Source: Heptranchias perlo
Lineage: Eukaryota
DNA length: 64,000 nt
NCBI RefSeq assembly: GCF_035084215.1
Contig: NC_090345.1
Span: 20,460,001-20,524,000 of the forward strand
Direction of reading: 5' to 3'
Below the pieces are notes generated by a model. The model searched no databases. It was not told the DNA's origin and saw only the letters and a program-made list of their open reading frames with translations. Position 1 is the first letter of the stretch. Every line of letters starts with the position of its first letter. The position numbers and the translations under genes were made by a program. Below, one piece after another: positions 1-36,990 of this stretch.

Positions 1-156
1 TGACTGCCAAACAACCAAAAATTAACTTTTAAAAATGTAAAGTCTCATATTACTCCTTATTTTAATAGTAATTTTTGGTCATTAAAAAAACATTCTTTTA
101 AATTAAAACATTTTTTAAAAATTTTTTTACTTTTCCCTTCTGTCTCCTTAATTTAA

Positions 157-403
157 ATGATGTGGAGATGCCGGTGATGGACTGGGGTTGACAATTGTAA
201 ACAATTTTACAACACCAAGTTATAGTCCAGCAATTTTATTTTAAATTCACAAGCTTTCGGAGGCTTCCTCCTTCGTCAGGTGAACGATGTGAAAAACTAT
301 CTTTTTCACATCGTTCACCTGACGAAGGAGGAAACCTCCGAAAGCTTGTGAATTTAAAATAAAATTGCTGGACTATAACTTGGTGTTGTAAAATTGTTTA
401 CAA
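157..403. mobile_element. Penelope-type fold-back (inverted terminal repeat) insertion with hammerhead motifs
   Basis: ~100-bp inverted arms plus a ~38-nt one-sided tail; 12-bp TSD TCCTTAATTTAA (145-156 and 404-415). Confidence 0.8.
314..352 (+). ncRNA. Minimal type I hammerhead ribozyme motif (mirror copy on the minus strand at 246-284)
   Basis: TTCAC-CTGACGA-A-GGAGG(AAA)CCTCC-GAAA-GC-TT-GTGAA: stem I, core, stem II and a palindromic stem III. Confidence 0.7.
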
Positions 404-835
404 TCCTTAATTTAACTATTTCTTTGGCTTTTTATATAAAAATATATACTTTTTTATTTACAATAATATCCAGAATAACTAACTTTAAATGAATGAAGTC
501 TCCTGGCCTGCTTCAGCAATGACGCCTGAACCTGTGGGCATGACGTCTCTTCCTGTCAGATTTTGTGGGCGTGTTTTCTATTCGCACAGATTTCTTCCAT
601 GCTCGTCAACTCATGGTGCTTAGAGGCTGAGTTGATAGCGCACAATTTTTTAAAAGTTCAAAATCAAGCAAGTTGACGCCACAGAGCCCGCAGTAAGTAC
701 ATTCGTTAATTTAATTCGCAGGAGCTGCGGCGAGCATTGCCTTGCCGCTCTGCGCGAGTTCTGGCCCAATATAAAACTGGCACAGTTCATCAAATACAAA
801 CATTTCAAATAGAAAATGATAGCTATAAATTCTAC

Positions 836-6900: not shown

Positions 6901-9900
6901 GTGGTTTAATTGGCTTTAGGTGCTAACACTCTTTTAGCATAATGTCAATCCTTGCTTTTATTAATTGGTGCTTACCAAGGTGACTGACAACATCTTAGTG
7001 AATAAACTTCAAACCAGTAAGTATCACCATTTATTCTGTAATGTACAGTTTACCATTGAATGTATAGTTCCTACCCACCCACCAATGTAATTGTATAAAT
7101 GTTTCTGTATTTTAATATGTTACTGGCCAATGTTACTGGTTGACTTCAACAGAAAGTAATATCAGGCAGAGTGTAAAGCAGTCAACCGTTCCAATCCTGT
7201 TGGTTTTCTGCTGAGCGAGATAGGTTAAAATTACCTACGTAGCTTTTGGAAATGACTTGCATACAAGTACTTAACTTTTAAAAACTCCTAACAGGGGCCA
7301 TTGTTTTGATGCAGTTCACTTTTTGAAAAGACTTAAACTCCGCTGCTCAGCCTTTTTAATGCTACTGAGAACAATGCCATTGACAATGTCCATCTCTCTA
7401 AAAATAAGTTGCACAATGGATCAGACACAATACAGATGTTTCCCTCCAGTGCCCTGACATTCACCCTCATCCTAGGCTTTTGCAAAAGACATCAACAGCA
7501 CCATTAGACCATTACCATTACCCCACTTATCAGACTCTTTGGGGGGAATTTTAACTCCCCTATGACGGGCGGGAGAGGGTCGGGAGTGTGGGGGGGGTTA
7601 AATCGTCAAATTTGCGAAACCCGGCCCCAACACGCCGCGAGCGCACCTGTTTCTGTTTTAACCGCGGTGGATATCGGGGCGTGAAGTAATCCGCTCTGGA
7701 GAGGGGGGTCCGTCGTTATAATGTTTAAATGCGGCTCCTTTACTGAGATTTTGGTAGCAATTTGAAATTAACACCTCCTGCATAGGTTTCCCAGGATTTG
7801 AGAAACTCGTCAGTAAAACGGAGGCGAGATTGAGCGACACTTCATCGGGATGGTCAGGAATCCCGATATGAATAAAGGCTCAGTGCTCACAGTTGCTTTC
7901 TCAGTTCTCTCTGCGAAACGGTTTGGTGAGAGTACTTGCTGTGAGAGATTTATAGGTACAGTGTGAAGGTGTTCACACAGAGAACATCAGAATAGGTGGT
8001 GTCATGGCTGCTTTTGATTGGACATCAGATAAGGACGACAATCAGCATCCACAGCAGCAAGGGCATGCTGTGGTGGGAACTGCAGGTGGACAAAAGAGAG
8101 GTGGACAACAGAGAGAGGTGGACGATAGAGAGGGGAGCAACAGAGTGGTCGAGTTTGCAGGAAGCACTACCCATGTAACAGGGTGTACAGATAAAGGCTC
8201 AGCTTCCTTGACCTCTCAGAAGAGTCAGATTATCACGTCAGGTGATCGCAGACATCTGCAGCCTCCTAAAAGACGACCAGCTCCCTGCTGGACCTGCATT
8301 ACCAGTAATTGAGTCGCCCTCAATTTTTTTGCCTCTGGTTCCTTCCAGGGTGCTACTGGAGAGAGTCTCGCAGTCAGCTGCACATAAATGCATAAGGCAG
8401 GTGACTGATGGATTATTTGCCAGGGCTGGGAGGTATGTAAACTTTCTCTGTGATGACAATAGCCAGAATGAGCGGGCACTTGCATTTGCGTCTCTGGCTG
8501 GCTCCCCACAGGTACAAGGTGCCATTGACTGTACACACGTGGCAATCCAAGCACCACCGGATCAACCAGGAGCATTCGTTAACCACAAGGGATTTCATTC
8601 CATCAATGCTCAGCTGGTGTGCAGCCACAAGAAAAGGATCATGCAGGTCTGCGCCAGATTCCCTGGGAGCTGCCATGATACTTTCATACTGCGTCAGTCC
8701 AACATCCCCGACCTGTTTGTAGCTGGAATCAGCCTTAACAGGTGGCTGCTAGGCGACACAGGATTCCCGCTTCAAACCTGATTGATGACACCTCTGAGGG
8801 GTAGAGACAGGCTGCTCTGATCCCTGCTCTGGCTGTTGAGATGCTCTTGGCCGATGACCTCTGGGTGTTGGAGCCCGTGAGGGCCCCGCCAAAGACTGCT
8901 CCACCTGCGCCTGTGCAGGGGCAGACTCGGCTTTTGGGAGATGAGGCAGCATGTCGGGTACTGGTTGAGGGATTGCCAACAGGTGAGACGTGGGAGCGCT
9001 TTGAGTGGAGTTCCCACTTCCATTTCCCCTTTCGCCATCATCCCTCTCCTAGGCCACAGCTAAGGTATCTGTCATCCTGTTTAAGGCGCCAGACATGTTG
9101 GCATCCAAAGTCTGTAAGGTCATGGCTTGCATGGACTGATTTGATTGCCGCGATTGAAGTTCCACAGAGGAGACCACTCTATCCTTGGAAGACATCTTCA
9201 CAATTACCTGCGACATCAATCCACAAATACTTGAGCTGGACTCCTCCATCCTCTGTGCTATTGTGGACAGTGTGTCTGGCACGACTGCCAGAACTTTGCA
9301 AATTTGCTGCTGATCCTCTATCAGTCTCCTTTTCACCGATGCCTCCCAGGGTTCAGCATCCATGTCCAGCTGAACAGAGCTTGAAGAGGAGTACACCCTA
9401 CCACCCGGACTCTCCACAGCTGTCCCTGCCACCATTCTCTGCTTGTGCACACTTGTGAACTGTGATTTACCAGGCATGATCCCAACTAACTCTCTAACAG
9501 GACCCACCGAAGTGCTCGTATCTGCGCTGGTGCCTGGTAAGCATATGTCCTGTGATGGTGCACCCTCAGAACGAACCAGCTCCTCTGAGGAAATGTCATA
9601 GGAATGTAAAAATGTTGAAATTCAGCATGATTAAAGTGACCATATTTTATTTGGTGCTGAAATCAAGTCAACGTGACTTAGTCTTGTATGAGATGCGGGT
9701 CGGAGATATTTAGCGCTGTCACCATGGGGCAGTGCAGTTCGAGTCTCGCCATTTCCGAAGCTCAGGGGCAATGATATCCCACTTATCTCCATGGCCTCTT
9801 GCTCTGCAGATGTCAATGGTACGGTCTGTGGTAGAACACCTCCAGTCCACTCACTCGCCCTTGTATTTTTCGTCCCCTTCTCCTGCAAGGGGGCATGACA

Positions 9901-12900
9901 GACCTATGAATGTCTGTAAGGCATGTGTGCATCCGATGGATGCAGTGCATTCAGGGTGACAATCAGGCAGATGTATCACGAGTGGCACTGGCATGCATTT
10001 GAGGATATGTTGACAGTGCCATTTGAGGACGTGTGCTGAGATTCAGGTGAGCTGACTGAGGTGGTATCACATTACATAAGGATTGGGGTGAGTGGCAGTG
10101 ATGGATGGAGAAAGGGGGAGGTGAGGAAGTCCATAGAAAGGGAACAATGGGTGCTGCTGAAACTTAAGTGGCTGTGAGGAGTGATGTGATGGAGTATGCT
10201 TGATAAGACAGAGTGAAAGGGGGGGTGCACTACAGGATGTAGGTGAATCTGCAACTGTGATCACCTTTCCTGACCAGGTTAGGTCATTAAACCGCTTCCT
10301 GCACTGGATCCAGGTACGGAGCACCACACTCCTGCTGCTGACCTCCTCAGCCACCTCTAGCCATGCCTTCTTCGTCACAGCAGCAGGTTTCTTCTTGCTA
10401 TTGCTGGGGAATAGGACCTCCTTCCTAACCCTCATTGTACCCAGTTGTACATCAAATGACACCTCGTTGAACTGGGGCACAGCCTTTTGCCTTCCTGACT
10501 CTCTCTCCTGCAATGCACCCAACTCCATCTTTGCATTGGCCCTTTAAATAGTCAAGGCGAAATTGCATCATGCAGGTGAGCATCACACCCGCTCATGTGC
10601 ACTGGAGACACGAAACCCGGAAGTAAAATGATAATGAAGCATCCCTGTTGAAATCGGACATTCCCTCGCGTCCCACGATCTTCCGCATTTCACGACCTCT
10701 ATCGCACCGCCCGCCCCGCTCAGATCCTGCCATAGCGATAATATCGACCTCTTTGACTTTGTGGGCTGTTGAAGCTGAATCAGTAATTTAGTGTCTAATT
10801 TCTGGATTAATTACATTGGGAACTGAGTCAAGGCACCAAAGAATTATTTTCTTCTGTCCTACATTAACTGTTAGAACTTTATCCCTTCCATCTAGGCTTG
10901 ATTCCAACCCAGTTTCCATTATGTCACTCAATACCTTATTTTAGTAATATAAATATTTTCTTTTCAAAACTGGGATTTCTTTAAATAGTATCAAAAGTGT
11001 ACTGTCTTCATGATAATCTCATATGTAAGTGATATGACAATTAGCTTCAATACATGCCATATGCTTTCAAGCAAATGAAAAAATGTTTAGCAAACACTTT
11101 CTTATAAAGAAAGTGCCCCTTAATTGTCTCCACTATATAACTCTATGAAGTTATTTTGTTAAGACTACAGTCTGTTCCAATGTTACTTGAAAATTGGCCT
11201 TCTGACCTATTGGCACTTTCCCCAAAGAACTGAAAAAGAGCCTGGACAAAAGCAAACTTGTTTTGTACATTGGAACATTGAGGTTTTTTGGCTCCTGCTC
11301 CCCAATACTGACGTACATAATTCCTACTGAATAGAACACTACAACAAACAGACACAGAAGTAGAAAATAGTCTGAGAATAGAATGTAACTTCAAGCAATC
11401 AGTACAGTTTTACCAACATTTAATGTGAACAGGTCCTGAGAACACTAAATTACCTTTCCAGAATTATCTTGATCATAGTAATAGAAATCAGTCATCATAT
11501 TCTTGAAACCCTCTCTAAATTTTTCCTTTAACCAGTTTTCTATGTCCAATGTCAGTTTTCTCTCCTTTTCTGCTTTTGTTTGGCTTCTTCCTGAGGATCC
11601 TGCATTTGAATGTGGAAAATTATCCACTACTGTAATAGAAAACAAAATCCAGCTTGGGAAAAAAGCTGAATCCCTTAAATTTGGTGCATACATAGTACAT
11701 ACTGAAATTCATGCAAAATCTGTTTACCTATAACATAAAGTGCCACAATTTTTAAATGGCAAAAATTGTATGGAGGGTTATTAATTTATCATGCAATTTG
11801 ATTTAGTTGTGCATGGGCTGGATGCCAAATGAAGGGCTGCTCATTTAATATTTTTTTGGATGTCATGTCAAGTCCCACTAACCAAGCAAAGTTCCTCAGT
11901 CTCCAAGTGCACGTGTGCATACTCGCACATACACACAAACAAAAATGGGACAAAGTCAGTTGCAATTTTGAGGTACTTGAGTATGATTTTATAGCATGCA
12001 TTTTTTGTTTTCCTTCTAATTCGCATTTGGGGATATAGGGGGAGATTTTTACTCTCTGTGCCCGGCAGAAATGGAATGGTTACTGAGTTAAAATGGAGGT
12101 GGTGATCTTCCTGCTCTGTTGCCATTTTTTCCGGGGCCTTCCACTGAGTGGCTCACTCCACCAGTCACCTGCCCAATGGTTAAAATACACCCTGTGGTCC
12201 CATGAAGGACAAAGAAAACATCTAAACGTACTTAGCTGATCTTCTAATAAGCTGAATCTGGTTATCTTGCCAAGTGCTGACGAGCCTGATTTCCATCCTT
12301 CCCCATGATCACTTTTATTTTGGAAACCCAATGCTCTCATTAAGCTGTCAACTTTAACAATTCCAAGATCATCTGGGTCATACCTGGAGGTGGGACGGGT
12401 AAAGGATAAAAGAACTCAGAAGAAGCTTAACAAGAAAAGGAAATATGGAATATGTTGTACACGGAATCAAAGTGTCAGAGTTCGAGCCCTTTGTATTTGT
12501 TGTGGGGAGCAGCTGCTTTCTTTTTGAGCAATGGTGGCCTAAAGTAGTTTACACTGCTAATGTATTGTCATGTAAAAACATACTTATCATGGAAGAATAA
12601 ACCCAATGGTGGCAAGACCTCCTCTATATATTGGTTTTTGCTTAGATATGCCACTGTATATCTACAAACAGCACAATTGGGGCTTCTTCTGAACAAAGAA
12701 GCTGTGATCAAGAATTAACTATTAACTAATAGGATGCAAGATTCAGCCCATCACCAATGTGCTGCACAATCACATTAGCTTTTGTACTATTTTGACCCTT
12801 TATATGAAGATTTTTACTTTAAAAACTTTCCAAAAATATTGGGGAAAGCTAAGGTCTGTATTTTCACTGATGTTACCAATTAACTACACAGCTGTATTGA

Positions 12901-15900
12901 GATATCTAAGGGTACACTTATGCTGCCACTACTGATCTGAGACCAATAGCTGGAGTATTGGTTCCAGCCAAGCACTACCTTGTTTATACGGCCTGATCCT
13001 GGAATTTTTCTGTCTGGGAATGAGCTCTGTTCATTCTTGCTTACACACTAGGCAGAGCTCCCCACCCAGTGGTTCAAATTTAAATGTTTAGAGAGTGCAG
13101 GCACAAGCACATTCTCTGATCATTCAAAACAACTCAGGATAATGTTAAAAAGCAGGAACAAGGTCCAACAGACCGCTCAAGTACTTGCTAAACTGGGCTT
13201 GATACTGCATTGGAATTATATGGACCCACACCACTTCTCTCAGATTGGGACCTCACTGCAACACTTCCATTGTTACAAAGCAGTTTCCAAGAAAACCCCT
13301 TTGCAGTGAAATCAGTATTCAGTTAAATGTAATGTTATGTTGCTTTCTTTCATTTGTAAACAATTTTACAACACCAAGTTATAGTCCAGCAATTTTATTT
13401 TAAATTCACAAGCTTTCGGAGGCTTCCTCCTTCCTCAGGTTCACCTGAGGAAGGAGGAAGCCTCCGAAAGCTTGTAAATTTAAAATAAAATTGCTGGACT
13501 ATAACTTGGTGTTGTAAAATTGTTTACAATTGTCAACCCCAGTCCATCACCGGCATCTCCACATCATGGCTTTCTTTCATAGCAGTGCATGATTAGTTAA
13601 TTTGACTTGTGATTGTTTCCTAGCTGTAAGCACCAACCTGAGGTGAACAGAGTTAAACATATTGAGCTCAGTTTTCTTCTCGGTGAAAAGGTACCAACTC
13701 TATTTGCATGAGCCAATGAAGTGTTCACATCCAAGAGAACACACATCAGATCAATGTGTCACATACATGATTTTTCCCCCTTCACCTTGAATGCAAGGAG
13801 CTAAAAACTTTAATAAGCAGAAACGAACATTTGGTTTGCAATCTCTAAAAGTTTTATTTTTTTAAATGGAAAAAGTATTCAACAATATTCATATGACATT
13901 CCTTTGTCTACCATCTTAATGGAGGCGTTAGTCTGTGTATTTTAAATGCGTTTACACCTCCTCTAAAATACGAGACAAAGCAACATCACATAAGTCTGCT
14001 AATAATGCCAATAATAATTTCTGGGTTTTAATCACATTGTAGGGAAGAATTAGCCAGGTCCTGTGGAATCACAATCATGCCATAAAACCATTTGCTACAA
14101 AGCACTTGAATATTAATATTACAGTCAATAATAATATTCTGTACCTTTTCAACAGTTTTCTGAATTCATCATGTTCCATTTCTATTCCTAGTTTATGTAA
14201 AACATTTTGAAATATGATTGGAAGCATTCTGCCATTATCCATCTTTGTAAAAAGATCTCTCAGTTCCAGTGGCCTGGAATTAAGACAAAATGGGAGTGTT
14301 ATGCAAATTTACACATTTGTACATTAAAATAACATTTTTTTAAAATTAGAGCAAAATGTGCCAGGGTGCTGAAACACACAGCAAACCAAGATGGTGGGAT
14401 ACAGGGTTGACCTTTCATTTCTGCTGAGTTTCCATACTGAGCTGCACTATGGTCCAAAGACCTAGCACATCAGAAGGAGAACCATTGCATGGCCCCATTA
14501 CACACCTCCTAGCCATCAGCTAAACACTGGCATTGGCAGAGGCCTTGGAGCAGGTCATCCATCCTCTCAGCTTCAAAAATGCAGGGATTAAAAAGAACTC
14601 TGTGGGGGGGAAAAGGGACTTAAATAGAGGAATTACCCAAAGTGCAGATTCTGCCCCTATCAAGTTTTAATATCACTGGAGTTTGAATTTAATGCATTTA
14701 ATGTCTCCTCTTCTTTATAAGAAAGAACGTTCTATAAAATGAGCATTTGTACTTTATTGATGTATCACATTGCATTGTGAAAAATACTGATTGCTTTTAG
14801 CAATATTGCTGGCTTGTGCATATATCCTATGAACCTATTTCAATGATACTGAATTTCTACAGTGTGATCAATGGATGCAAATGATTATATTTGCAACATT
14901 TTTTGCATAATAAAAGCCACCTTCTGCATGTTTATGAAACCACAATTCAATTGACCCACAGGGCAGAATATCATCACATGCTCTGGACCAATTTGTTGCT
15001 TTGTTTCTGTCCACATCCAATTATTCCTGTCCTCTGGCTTCCAATAAACTTACACTAACCCTGGAAGTAGAATTTAAGTAATCTTTTGAGTCCCGGCAGC
15101 TATTGCAAGAGCACAAAGGAAGGAGGCAATGGCATTGACAAGGGAGAAAATGCCATTTGGTAAACATCACTGTCCAGTTCCTAAGGATTTCACATGGTGT
15201 GAGTTCAACATCCCGTATTACTGCGCCGTGTCACTTTACGGTATAGTATAAGCTGCCTACATTTCTATGACAGAACTCCTTGGATAAAGTTATAATTATG
15301 CAGTCTTACCACTTGTTGGGTGTAAAAGTTATACAAACATACCAACTAAACATCCCACTGCCATTTAAAAGTAGACAACACTAAAAGTAGAGCTCACCAT
15401 TAATGAAGCATACTTTTTAAAAAACAATAGACTTAAAGTATTTCCTTAAAATTTAAAGCAAATAATTAAAAAGCTTCATTTTCTGTTTGTTATATGTACA
15501 TGCATGCTAGCATTAAACTTAAATTTACTGTCTTTGATAATATAATTTCCATTGGTTTTGACCAGTGTATGTCTAATGTTGATAGTGCTGGTTAATTTTA
15601 AAATTACAGTGGAGTTACAGAGGGAGAAATTCAACTTTCGGCCCTCCGTTTTGCACCCATATAATGGGAGTTAGGCCTCCGAATTTCGTGTTGCCACCTG
15701 TCGCGTCTGATCTGGACCAGGTGTCGTCCAGGGTGCCTGCCTGAAATAGGGGTTAGGCTCCTTACATATGCAAAACAGGGCCCAAGGAGCGATCACTCCA
15801 CCGATTTTACACCTGATTTTGGCGCTAGTCGAATTTCTCCCCCAAAGATCCTGAATAAGGGCTATGACTAATTTGTTAGTAGAGATCTGCCTGTACATGT

Positions 15901-32375: not shown

Positions 32376-32624
32376 TTGTAAACAATTTTACAACACCAAG
32401 TTATAGTCCAGCAATTTTATTTTAAATTCACAAGCTTTCGGAGGCTACCTCCTTCGTCAGGTGAACGATGTGAAATGATGAACAATGGTGAACAATGATG
32501 TCACCTGACGAAGGAGGTAGCCTCCGAAAGCTTGTGAATTTAAAATAAAATTGCTGGACTATAACTTGGTGTTGTAAAATTGTTTACAATTGTCAACCCC
32601 AGTCCATCACCGGCATCTCCACAT
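32376..32624. mobile_element. Penelope-type fold-back insertion with hammerhead motifs
   Basis: Same family; TSD CATAAATTATCTA (32363-32375 and 32625-32637). Confidence 0.8.
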
Positions 32625-35251
32625 CATAAATTATCTAGGTATTCAATCTTTTTTGAAGATCATCAATTCAATTTATAACATAAATCCATCAATACAATGT
32701 TTTGTGAAAAATTATTTCATTGACAGTATTATTTTCTCAAATAGAACACATGCCCAGACACACAAGAACATTCCCAGCATGTCCATTAAGAGGAAACTAG
32801 AGTCTGATTAAGTCTCATGGCCACACACTCAACTCATTTGTTGTGCCAGCCACTGAGATTTGCCAGGCCTTTTTGTTATCTGTAAGGCTGTTTTTTGTAA
32901 AGGCTGAAGCATACGTGAACAATATTAATAGCCTTTGCAAAGGCAACAAACATTTTTATTCCCATATTCGGCCACTTACCTTTAAGTGGCTGCATCCTTT
33001 TAAATTTAACGATCACCCATTGTAAGGAACCCGCAATGCCAACACAGGCCCAAAACATGCTGGGAGCTTGCCTAATGTGTCTAAAATCAGGTGGGGTCAA
33101 CACACTAATAGCCAGGCAGATCCAAATAATGTCTGATTGGAGAATCCCCCATGGTTAAAGGTTCCATTAGCAAGAATGGCATTATTTTGAAGAAGGAGCC
33201 CAAAGATTAGTAATGGGAAGTATCACAAGTTTAGTGAGAGGTGTTGGGGTGGAGGACAGAAATAAGGTTTATGAATACAATAAAGGCACAAAATAAATGA
33301 TCCTCACTATGTTCATTTTCAAGAGCAACCAAGTATCAGATGAGAAATTTAATGAAATATTTGTTATTAAGGTAAAGATTGAGGTTTCAATGGGATAACA
33401 CCCTTCCCCAAATCAGACTTCAGTTGCTACCAACATTTATTGCGGTGATTTTCCCCACCACAGTACAGCTCTGTTATGTCAGCTGGCTACAAGATGGTCT
33501 AGTTATTTGAGAAGTATTATCATGTTCTTCCAATAAACTTCAAAAGCTAAGCTATCCCCTTTAGAATGTAGGCAGATTTCAGATAATGAAAATTCAGCCT
33601 CAGCACTTGTAGATTCCTGGAGCAAATTTCCAATATCGAGAATGTTTCTCTAAATTTGTTGATGAGATTAGGGAAATTTAATGTTGGGGCCAAAGTAAGG
33701 AGAAGACAAAGCCAAGTGAAATAGTTGTATTAGATTCTACTGTTACAAGGATAGATATGAAAAGGAAAATAGGACTGTACATTTCTAGCCAAGGGTGGGA
33801 AACCAATTGGTGGGTTCAGATGAGTGTTGCACATTGATGTAAATGATGGAGAGAGTAACAATGAAGATAGTAAAAGAGAGCTAGAAATCTTTAATGAGGG
33901 AGCTTAGACTCAAGAACCCCAATTTCGGAGTACATCCACGGTCTTGGGAAGTGGGCGCAGCATGAATAGCTTCCGTCTGATTGGTTGAGTGCTGGCCTAG
34001 CCAGGATATCCATAATTGGTTTCAAGTTTCAGTCTGTCACTCTTAAAACGATTCACTATAAATAATGCAGCTACACGATGCATACACGTGTTATCTGAGA
34101 CACCATGACACTTGCGTACGTCTCCACTACAATTTCAACTTTGCACCTCAGTTTCTCTGTTTTCAGGCGAAGGCTGCACATAACAAAAGGACACCACCCC
34201 CACCCCCAATCTTTGGCCAAGGCAGCATAAGGCAAAGTTGCTATTGGAGCAGTCAGAGGCCAATCACCAATTCAGGATTAGTACTTTCCTTCGCAAGCTC
34301 CTCCTTACTCACTCATTCAATGCCCCCAAAGCAGATAGGCAAGAGCAATACCATGATTCATTGTGTTGTGTTAATGCTGCCTTGATGACCTATGTCCCAT
34401 TTTAGATTTCACTAGGTGCATCCCAAGAACCAGAGCCACAGCCCATTGAGCCAGGTATGGCCAGTGTTCAGTGTCAACACACTCTTACCTGCACAAACAC
34501 TCCCTCAAGAAAGTAGAGTTCTCCCTCATGCCCAAGAGGCTGGCAATGATATATAGCATCCAATTACCTTATTTATGTCTGCCGCAAGGGGAGCAGCAGG
34601 TTATAGTCCACATCACCGAGCCATACAGCATTCTGCATGCTCCTGTGCTGATCCTCACAAACAAACCAATCCTTCATAGAGTGGCAGCCTTTGCGGTTCA
34701 TGAAGATGTAACTATTGTATGCAAAAGTCCAAATGGCAAAATGGATACCATCAATGGTATGCTCTGGGGGATCCTGCTATGTTTTGGGGAATCTTGCCAT
34801 TTGGAAAAGATACTGTAGCATCCTTTCATGCTGTTGCCAATTCTCTGCGAGGAAAGGCATTAGTGACTTGGAAATTCCATCTGCAAGCTGAAAATTGACT
34901 AATGTTGCTTATATCCCTCGTGGCACTCTGGAATGAATTTGAAGCATAAAAGCTTAGTGTTGTGGTGACCCTGGCAGTGGTGGGCACATGGATGTGTTTT
35001 GCTGGAGTTCCTGTTCTAGCATGCAATACAACTCCGCCACTGCCTCTCTTGTGAATTGTAGTCTACAAAGGCCAAGTTCCTCTGACAAGTTCAGGTGAGT
35101 ACACCTTTACCTGTAGACCCACAATGGAGAGTAACATCAGGCGTGGCCTATCCGCATCTGGTGCAATCTTATCTGTCTGGCAACATTCCTTTACTCCTCC
35201 TCTTCCTCCAAACAAAGTGGAAAATAGCAGTGCCAACAGTCACCAAAAGTG

Positions 35252-35899: not shown

Positions 35900-36990
35900 A
35901 ATCAGTTGAAAGAAAGCAATATGTAGTAGTAAATGAGAAAATATCAAGCTGGTAGTCAGTTTTTAGCTATGTATCACAAGGAGTGGTGTTGGAACCATTG
36001 CTGTTTGTCATCTGAATTAAAGAGACTGCAGTGAGTTCAACAGTGTCTAAATTTGTATATGATGCCAAAATGTCAGCAATGGTAAATGAGGGCCAGTGTA
36101 CACAAATGCAGAATGATTTGGATATACTGGGTTTGTGGGGAGAAAAGTGTCAGATGCAGTTTAAAGCAAGTAAATGTAAAGTTATGCAATTTAACAAAAT
36201 GGGTAATGGGACCAATGTAGTCAGTGGGTACTTACTGGATATCAGGATGTGGAGATGCCGGTGATGGACTGGGGTGGACAAATGTAAGGAGTCTTACAAC
36301 ACCAGGTTATAGTCCAACAGCTTTATTTGAAATCTCAAGCTTTCGGAGGCTTCCTCCTTAGTCAGGTGCAGAAGAGCAAATCTTAATTTGGTGGACAGGT
36401 CAGCCTAATGTTCCCATGCAGTAAAGAAAGAAGACACTGGCCTTTATAACAAACAGATAATTCAAAAAGGACAATTTAAAAATTGTATGGGGCCTTAGGA
36501 AGACCATGTTAACTCTGTTACATTTTAGTTCCTTTACTCCCTATGGAATATTACATCATTTGAGGGTTCAGCGGAGGATTACAAGAATGTCAAAACTTCA
36601 AGGATAACCAATTGTGTGTGGGAAGTCATTTGATAGAAGTTTAATATTACAAAAGGGCTGATTTGTTGAACCATACTTTTTTTTTTTTGCTGCCATGTAG
36701 CGAATTCCTGAACTAGGGCGTGCAGATTCAAGACAAAGAACTAAAATACTGTGCGTAGCAATTCAGATAGAATTTCTTTAGAAACAGAGCAGTCAACATG
36801 TGGAACAAACTACCTGAACAGATGGTTGACCGGCAACTTTAAGAGGTTTCAAAAAGGAGAAGAAAACAACTTTGTGGCATCTGAAAGGTCTCTTGGTTAT
36901 TAAATTATAAAACGTATCTTACAGGAAACAAAGGAGATAATTGAATGGGCACAGTAAATAGTTCAATGGCTTTCTGCCTGAAATACTATA
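35900..36990 (+). mobile_element. Old, decayed CR1 RT fragment
   Basis: [13 protein letters not shown]-like and KF.DDAK / MQFKASKCKVM remnants. Confidence 0.7.
36246..36368 (-). mobile_element. Solo arm of a diverged subfamily of the fold-back element
   Basis: Homologous to 159-282; lies inside a decayed CR1; hammerhead core mutated (CTGACTA). Confidence 0.7.

Follow-up and report, generated by a model that had tools for sequence, protein, structure and literature searches.

Insertions of EN+ Penelope-like elements (PLEs), as portrayed in the portions of Craig et al. (2021, PMC8557442) and Arkhipova et al. (2013, PMC3846280) available to us, comprise an inverted 5′-truncated copy and a one-sided tail of 30–40 bp. 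They resemble the insertion described here in their head-to-head inverted pLTRs with an optional tail at one end, in the target site duplication (TSD) around the unit, in the partial tandems found in the family and in the TATA- and Inr-like motifs of the pLTR. Unlike those insertions, as far as the same portions describe them, the unit here is a leader of only 95–140 nt, present in thousands of copies, and its ends track a TATA box. Nor are the two-haplotype pairs that we report predicted by the self-priming idea as put forward in the available part of PMC3846280.

For the minimal hammerhead ribozymes of metazoan PLEs, the accessible text of Cervera and de la Peña (2014, PMC4209133) notes low activity in vitro and also reports dual motifs 100–700 bp apart on opposite strands. 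The motif in our insert bears the marks listed there for PLE minimal hammerheads, whereas the copies here are very uniform and the motif is sequestered in a fold-back stub; the cleavage–circularisation model of that work predicts ends at the cut site, but such ends are rare here. For the Poseidon element PAc of Anolis, the available part of Frangieh et al. (2024, PMC11167929) reports that both strands are nicked and extended, that two internal RT starts define the tail, that uncut RNA serves as template, and that the protein is predicted to act as a dimer. The distal start of PAc lies 85–92 nt after the cut, compared with 94 nt here, and its use of uncut RNA in vitro agrees with the rarity of cut-site starts in our counts. 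In PAc the hammerhead overlaps the ORF start and the RT starts lie inside the ORF; unlike this member of the Poseidon clade, the element here has a Neptune-type linker and a tail that ends at the start codon. Inverted inserts and 5′ ends are not addressed in the part of the PAc work available. The non-LTR retrozymes in the accessible text of Li et al. (2026, 10.64898/2026.07.22.740005) are likewise short, non-coding, derived from PLE pLTRs and equipped with a type I hammerhead, but they are head-to-tail tandems with two same-strand ribozymes; our insert, being head-to-head, does not consist of head-to-tail units with a ribozyme each.

EN+ PLEs are already known to form inverted copies with a tail and a TSD and to carry hammerheads on opposite strands (PMC8557442, PMC3846280 and PMC4209133, as far as available). 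The origin of the inverted pLTRs and one-sided tail, and the role of the hammerhead, are given as open questions in the portions of PMC8557442, PMC3846280 and PMC11167929 at hand. What we add is the tail asymmetry (94/98), mirror-image target motifs, TATA-tracking ends, two-haplotype pairs and the rarity of cut-site starts. A literature search, confined to main texts and with few subscription journals among them, listed no paper describing fold-back PLE inserts that are leader-only, track a TATA box or stem from two templates, although the supplements of PMC11167929 and PMC4209133 may contain examples; with the same incomplete journal coverage, it listed none on strict tail asymmetry or a symmetric target.

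A head-to-head insert in an EFCAB6-like intron

The window analysed here is a stretch of 64,000 nucleotides from Heptranchias perlo (contig NC_090345.1, positions 20,460,001 to 20,524,000), and close to its left edge lies a 247-base insert, the parts of which are given in Table 1. Inverted-repeat analysis resolves the insert into two head-to-head arms of 103 nt each, 99% complementary with a single mismatch; base 404 is compatible with both arm 2 and the right TSD, and arm 2 runs from 302 to 404 if that base is counted. Tail bases 158–157 are the first two letters of the start codon of the autonomous ORF described below, and a tail of this kind is a PLE feature in the available parts of PMC11167929 and PMC8557442. 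The original prediction, which was made from the DNA letters, had described an inverted repeat of ~100 bp with a one-sided tail and a 12-bp TSD, all of which was confirmed at the sequence level. The hammerhead that it placed in each arm is likewise there, with stem I, CUGACGA, the extra A, a 5-bp stem II, GAAA and GCUU all present, and recent activity is borne out by near-identical intact parent ORFs at several loci, the single arm mismatch and the perfect TSD. The arms belong to subfamily B of two defined below. The insert has no TATA box, and with neither promoter nor ORF this stub was likely dead on arrival.

The position within an intron of an EFCAB6-like gene, also proposed earlier, stands: the insert lies between two tblastn matches on the minus strand, one at 937–716 and the other about 1 kb to the left of the window, and shark EFCAB6-like proteins map exon by exon on that strand from 26.7 kb in the window to beyond its left edge.

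Table 1. Coordinates of the insert and its parts, of related copies in the window, and of a second EN+ element elsewhere in the genome (window positions unless a contig is named)
Feature	Position	Strand	Remarks
TSD, left copy, 12 nt	145–156		full match to the left target motif TGNC directly before
PLE tail, 37 nt	157–193	−	on the left side only
Arm 1 (tailed)	194–296	−	leader of the autonomous element, subfamily B, beginning just after predicted +1
Arm 1 minimal type I hammerhead motif	246–284	−	sequence, fold and covariation; predicted cut between 251 and 250
Spacer, 5 nt	297–301		junction of both arm 5′ ends; private, absent from the other 29 best copies
Arm 2 (tail-less)	302–403	+	second copy of the same leader; ends at the upstream 3′ end site
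Arm 2 minimal type I hammerhead motif	314–352	+	sequence and fold; predicted cut between 347 and 348
TSD, right copy, 12 nt	404–415		perfect duplicate of 145–156
EFCAB6-like exon match	716–937	−	just upstream (gene direction) of the host intron; tblastn, match overruns the exon end
Second fold-back copy	13354–13567		shorter arms, own 12-nt TSD, different EFCAB6-like intron
Third fold-back copy	32376–32627		reiterated leader pieces at junction, own TSD
Older single tailed arm	36243–36368	−	more diverged, about 85–89% identical
Second EN+ PLE, sites	C4:141.42–141.85 Mb; C1:0.92–1.02 Mb and 198.07–198.27 Mb		contig C4 is 141.86 Mb long
Second EN+ PLE, further sites	C20:48–56 kb; starts of C5, C25 and C29		

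The hammerhead and the fold of the insert

On its own, each hammerhead 47-mer folds into stems I and II at −13.6 kcal/mol (z scores −2.5 and −1.9). For the insert in its entirety, the predicted structure is a single hairpin of −184.2 kcal/mol (z −29.9), which none of 200 shuffles equalled. A scan with the Rfam models, a check that had been proposed, returned no hammerhead family at E ≤ 10; the matches it did give were to generic hairpin models, none of which reached its gathering score. Among 274 arms, collected by a search that itself required the hammerhead core, the extra A is present in 272, G–C at 10.1 in 267 and GCUU in 273, and the marks of the minimal PLE hammerhead are all found: the core, the extra nucleotide at 9/10.1, G10.1–C11.1 and the palindromic 15.2–16.2. 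Pair 5 of stem II is G–C in 207 of these arms, A–U in 38, G–U in 24 and A–C in five, and stem I shows wobble swaps, which amounts to one compensatory change and several wobbles among copies that probably reflect few events. The expected stem covariation is to that extent upheld. Because the stems are kept over the 274 arms and the PLE marks are present, the hammerhead is, as judged from these alignments, likely to be under selection in the parent.

The further proposal that the insert might act as a switch between self-cleavage and long dsRNA did not survive. The hammerhead fold costs +62 kcal/mol on the plus strand and +65 kcal/mol on the minus strand, and the antisense arm is transcribed first in both directions. 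According to these folding models, the hammerheads of the stub would be passengers, buried in a 100-bp hairpin when the host gene reads through. An effect of the intronic insert as long dsRNA is plausible by analogy, because inverted Penelope copies yield siRNAs in Drosophila according to the available part of PMC3681739.

For the isolated subfamily B leader (157–296, minus strand), an alternative structure is also predicted, with an ensemble frequency of 0.04, that engages the core and stem I of the hammerhead in pairing with bases upstream. If this fold were real, an off conformer could exist in the parent RNA rather than in the stub.

The parent element

Some tails in the genome extend by a few constant bases, and a search with this extension led to 745 places, including 3.08-kb tandem units with an intact ORF of 902 aa. 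The arm is identical to the stretch directly before the ATG of this ORF, and two full-length homologues start at the same alignment position. The 902-aa protein matches RVT_1 (E 3e-10) and, C-terminally, GIY-YIG (E 3e-4, with a score of 21.3 bits that falls slightly short of the cut-off of 22.6), and it aligns with homologues carrying PF01541; it is a single ORF with RT and C-terminal GIY-YIG endonuclease, as in EN+ PLEs. Its closest named homologues are shark proteins, with 80–96% identity over parts of the query. An alignment places CX4CXXC in the RT–EN linker, which fits the CX2–5CXXC pattern that marks Neptune, Nematis being similar (PMC8557442, in the part available); by this motif the parent would be a Neptune-type PLE. 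The 3.08-kb tandem units have one hammerhead each, and the inverted 5′-truncated copy with a one-sided tail is found in 94/98 short pairs and in the long pairs L221–L225. The Penelope origin proposed at the outset is therefore secure, the arm being the leader of an intact RT+GIY-YIG element; such an autonomous partner sharing the terminus had been suggested as a search target, as had the copy number, which is reported below for the arm core. A genome search with the GIY-YIG family had also led to a telomere-associated PLE, which we rejected as the partner because it has no nucleotide match to the arm.

At locus L114 (C2:21,272,900–21,276,700) there are ten 404-bp head-to-tail units of the same family, each with the TATA box, leader, hammerhead, tail and first ~140 nt of the ORF. 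This retrozyme-like array is a candidate non-autonomous template.

Copies in the genome

A 32-nt core of the arm has 47,045 exact matches genome-wide. Among the first 100 matches listed, which come only from the first 5.5 Mb of contig C1, there are 21 head-to-head close pairs (three being duplicates of one insertion) and no tail-to-tail pair; scaling from 21 pairs per 100 cores gives a rough figure of ~10,000 short fold-backs in the genome. Six of the 100 matches were removed as near a locus edge or duplicate in context, leaving 94 arms for analysis. The C1 sample includes 65 short arms; for 47 of them there is a partner in inverted orientation, while the other 18 stand alone, nine of these with a TSD. 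The loci examined yielded 98 distinct close pairs, a sample biased towards copies resembling the query insert. Subfamily B is also found with head-to-head, ORF-bearing arms of up to 2.6 kb, with a near full unit in L226, and because of these we read the insert as the short end of a continuum up to ORF-bearing copies, not as a separate family.

This reading has to be set against the original prediction, namely that the insert belongs to a non-coding family of fold-back mini-elements, transcribed and reinserted as a unit and working as a cleavage/dsRNA switch. Many near-identical 245-bp copies with TSDs exist in the genome, and a few junction types recur among pairs, as such a family would have it. 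However, 28 of the 30 best whole-insert matches have distinct junctions, each match with its own TSD or flank, the junction of the window's insert was not found in any other of these 30, and 94 pairs contain 87 distinct inner sequences. Together with the variable arm lengths, this leaves no fixed internal structure shared by descent, and the continuum to kilobase-long ORF-bearing arms, the missing TATA box of the stub, and the 62–65 kcal/mol that separate the ribozyme fold from the hairpin, with the antisense arm always first, weigh in the same direction. The idea of a unit that moves as such is largely refuted, and we consider it very unlikely. A MITE or Foldback DNA transposon would also be short, with long inverted arms, a TSD and a high copy number, but the ends here are asymmetric (94/98), sizes vary, the TSD is 10–15 nt, and the arm runs unbroken into the RT+GIY-YIG ORF. 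The check for a DNA-transposon match that had been proposed accordingly came out against a MITE, given the RT+GIY-YIG partner, and this explanation is hardly credible.

3′ ends, target sites and double priming

The 94 arms end in three ways at their 3′ side: 49 are tail-less, 41 are tailed and four run into the ORF. There are two fixed 3′ ends, 37 nt apart, one for each side of the insert. Pairs combine one tailed and one tail-less end in 94 of 98 cases; one pair has two tail-less ends and three involve the ORF. A TSD of 10–15 nt flanks 92 of the 94 tailed/tail-less pairs, with a mode of 12 nt (50 pairs). Where the TSD is 12 nt long (47 sites), TGNC scores 1.57 of 3 in the left flank against a background of 0.68, and its reverse complement, GNCA, scores 1.57 in the right flank against 0.71, the motif being post hoc in that it was derived from the same data as were scored. 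The motif blurs if the sites are anchored on the element end (1.83 vs 1.39 of 6), and the lack of A at −1 of the target is an artefact of maximal TSD calling. From this geometry we infer that each TSD end is a 3′ OH extended by antisense cDNA, which implies that priming took place twice, at nicks 12 nt apart. The anole PLE behaves in a matching way: in the available part of PMC11167929, both strands are nicked and extended and two internal starts define the tail. Double priming of both strands is very probable.

In two groups of insertions (L004, L022, L146, L159 and L220; L073, L134 and L194), the same position of other host repeats was hit independently, with identical TSD flanks at different loci; these are target hot spots.

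Junctions and the number of templates

Both hammerhead cores are present in 67 of the 94 pairs. N7, where C or G marks the subfamily, differs between the arms of seven of these, compared with the 40% discordance expected under random pairing, while the background of core mismatches is 18 in 4,410 positions (0.4% per site, biased low by selection). In one of the seven, L302, the junction is a clean palindrome and yet three linked markers differ between the arms. From the discordant pairs we conclude that two RNAs supplied the cDNAs of some inserts at least. The remaining pairs agree at N7 (60/67), with 61/67 agreeing for the stem II/loop haplotype; such concordance lies far above random, so that most pairs may come from one RNA, from one source locus or from fold-back, and concordant pairs do not decide between one and two templates. 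The junctions themselves are of several types: short overlaps, slipped repeats of the leader end and host-derived filler, with several perfect palindromes. Overlaps, slipped repeats and filler would fit end-joining.

At L236, L292, L143 and L196, the arms are separated by 40–200 nt of host-like filler, some of it repeated by slippage.

5′ ends track the TATA box

Subfamilies A and B are distinguished by the stretch that separates a TATAAAT box from the hammerhead. The 5′ ends of the arms form a pile-up 30 nt (A) or 29 nt (B) after the first T of TATAAAT, at a point 10 nt (A) or 18 nt (B) before the hammerhead core. The pile-up of subfamily B falls on the A of TCATTTT, which we take to resemble the Inr consensus. 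In all, 34 of 80 assignable arms end within −2 to +8 of TATA+29/30. The rate of 5′ ends per nt is 0.05 at the pile, 0.004 downstream, 0.019 in the next 18 nt upstream and 0.001 farther upstream, with arms ending at least 225 nt upstream censored, since differences in T-run length break the alignment there. Across the 10–11 nt upstream of the pile, the number of exact matches in the whole genome drops from 9,760 to 6,186 in subfamily A and from 3,964 to 1,757 in subfamily B, with mutation accounting for part of each drop, and 518 subfamily B arms begin exactly at the pile-up A behind two non-template bases. Single arms, with no partner and their own TSD, also start at this position; therefore the pile is not produced by arm-to-arm joining. 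In an unrelated telomeric PLE (33% amino acid identity), a TATA box also stands ~30 nt before hammerhead stem I. We consider it probable that the 5′ pile-up reflects run-off at a capped 5′ end, that is, at the predicted start.

Some observations do not fit easily with this. A cap-templated extra G was not seen among single or filler-joined arms (3/11), and 12/94 arms end 3–20 nt past the predicted +1. None of 24 leader copies that run into the ORF ends within −2 to +8 of the predicted +1, when about six of the 15 at risk would be expected to (P 3e-4), so that either copies of the tandem type were made on a different template (read-through RNA) or something else causes the pile. The TATA-less, internal promoter of D. 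virilis Penelope, in the part of PMC2377424 available, also counts against a TATA-directed start. A 3′ splice site as the cause of the pile was rejected: neither position is preceded by an AG, and the junctions do not share a constant upstream exon.

Arms that start at the ribozyme cut number 109 genome-wide, as against 150 starting two bases downstream and 31 four bases upstream, and as against the 518 subfamily B arms at the predicted +1. The counts are raw with respect to flank composition, so that there may be a small excess at the cut; the 109 arms are well under 1% of arm cores. Since cut-site starts are this rare, cut RNA would rarely be the template. The possibility that many arms start at the cut had been suggested by 7/94 arms ending 10–19 nt upstream of the anchor, and was rejected on the genome-wide count. 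Of 30 inspected arms that start at the cut, at least five are stem I microhomology joins.

A model of the insertion and its rivals

The insert is almost certainly a by-product of PLE insertion. Our preferred model is of leader copies double-primed in one insertion event and running off at the predicted start, and we give it, as a whole, a probability of roughly two in three. A symmetric (dimeric) RNP would nick both strands, leaving 3′ overhangs staggered by 12 nt; one strand end would then prime at the AUG, the end of the tail, and the other 37 nt upstream. The template would be uncleaved, promoter-initiated RNA, both cDNAs would run off at the predicted transcription start (the cap), and the two cDNA 3′ ends would be joined by microhomology or by end-joining with filler.

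The same parent could have given rise to the inverted arm by self-priming or fold-back of one strand, as has been proposed for rotifer PLEs. Head-to-head junction palindromes are read in that way in the available part of PMC3846280, several junctions here are perfect palindromes, and most pairs share the N7 marker (60/67) and the stem II/loop haplotype (61/67). Against this stand the seven of 67 pairs with different markers, which include the perfect-palindrome junctions of L302 and L303, and the long host-derived filler at L236, L292, L143 and L196, which resembles end-joining; moreover, self-priming alone explains neither why the second 3′ end is so exact nor why a TSD flanks each side. We regard it as an improbable account of the population. 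Alternatively, double priming may be right while the 5′ pile marks not a cap but a stop of the RT, at structure or a homopolymer, or else the end of a few short master copies. The pile lies just past hammerhead stem I, at short runs of A or T, the ORF-preceding copies that end there are 0/24, the extra G is lacking, and short promoter-bearing tandem arrays exist as potential masters (L114). However, the distance of the pile from the hammerhead varies (10 nt in subfamily A, 18 nt in B) whereas its distance from the TATA box stays at 30/29 nt, and longer T runs further upstream are passed. An RT stopping at structure is expected to do so on its 3′ side, whereas the pile lies after the structure. 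This, too, seems unlikely, and double priming with run-off at the predicted start remains the reading that we prefer.

As for what the fold-backs record, the chances are about even that they are a fossil record of an asymmetric dimer that primes both strands of a symmetric 12-nt cut at two coupled template sites and is able to draw on two different RNAs, in which it is mostly the capped leader that is copied, a run-off that may be likened to a ‘strong-stop’. If true, a single step would account for both the inverted pLTR and the one-sided tail, DNA alone would suffice to place the transcription start, and it would follow that RNA cut by the hammerhead almost never serves as template; host introns would be seeded with 100-bp hairpins against the element's own leader. 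The insert itself is ordinary PLE insertion debris, and it is the population of copies that is useful. With intact ORFs, two variants of the promoter and arms in the tens of thousands, this young family provides in vivo counts on insertion, and these fit double priming, speak in some cases against pure self-priming, and speak against cut RNA as the template.

Other elements

The unrelated telomeric PLE mentioned above is a second EN+ element (loci L041–L060), in which a 754-aa ORF1 overlaps a 744-aa RT+GIY-YIG ORF; its linker motif is C-rich, it carries a hammerhead, and degenerate CCCTAA-like repeats make up its 3′ region. Its tandem arrays, of 7.5–9 kb, lie close to the ends of contigs among TTAGGG tracts, and it looks like a telomere-associated, endonuclease-bearing PLE. 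Telomere attachment has been described for EN− clades (PMC8557442, in the part available), and our literature search returned nothing further on telomere-associated endonuclease-bearing PLEs; this element is possibly more interesting than the fold-back insert. Beside it, at L052:3656–4860 (C20, about 57.6–58.9 kb), five hammerhead motifs of another sequence type stand at a spacing of 293 bp and form a retrozyme-like tandem.

Within the window, a DDE_Tnp_4 fragment at 8212–8778 on the plus strand (E 7e-19) faces a Myb/SANT-like ORF at 10070–10543 on the minus strand (E 3e-6). The pair lies inside an intron of the EFCAB6-like gene and is presumably a Harbinger-type DNA transposon.
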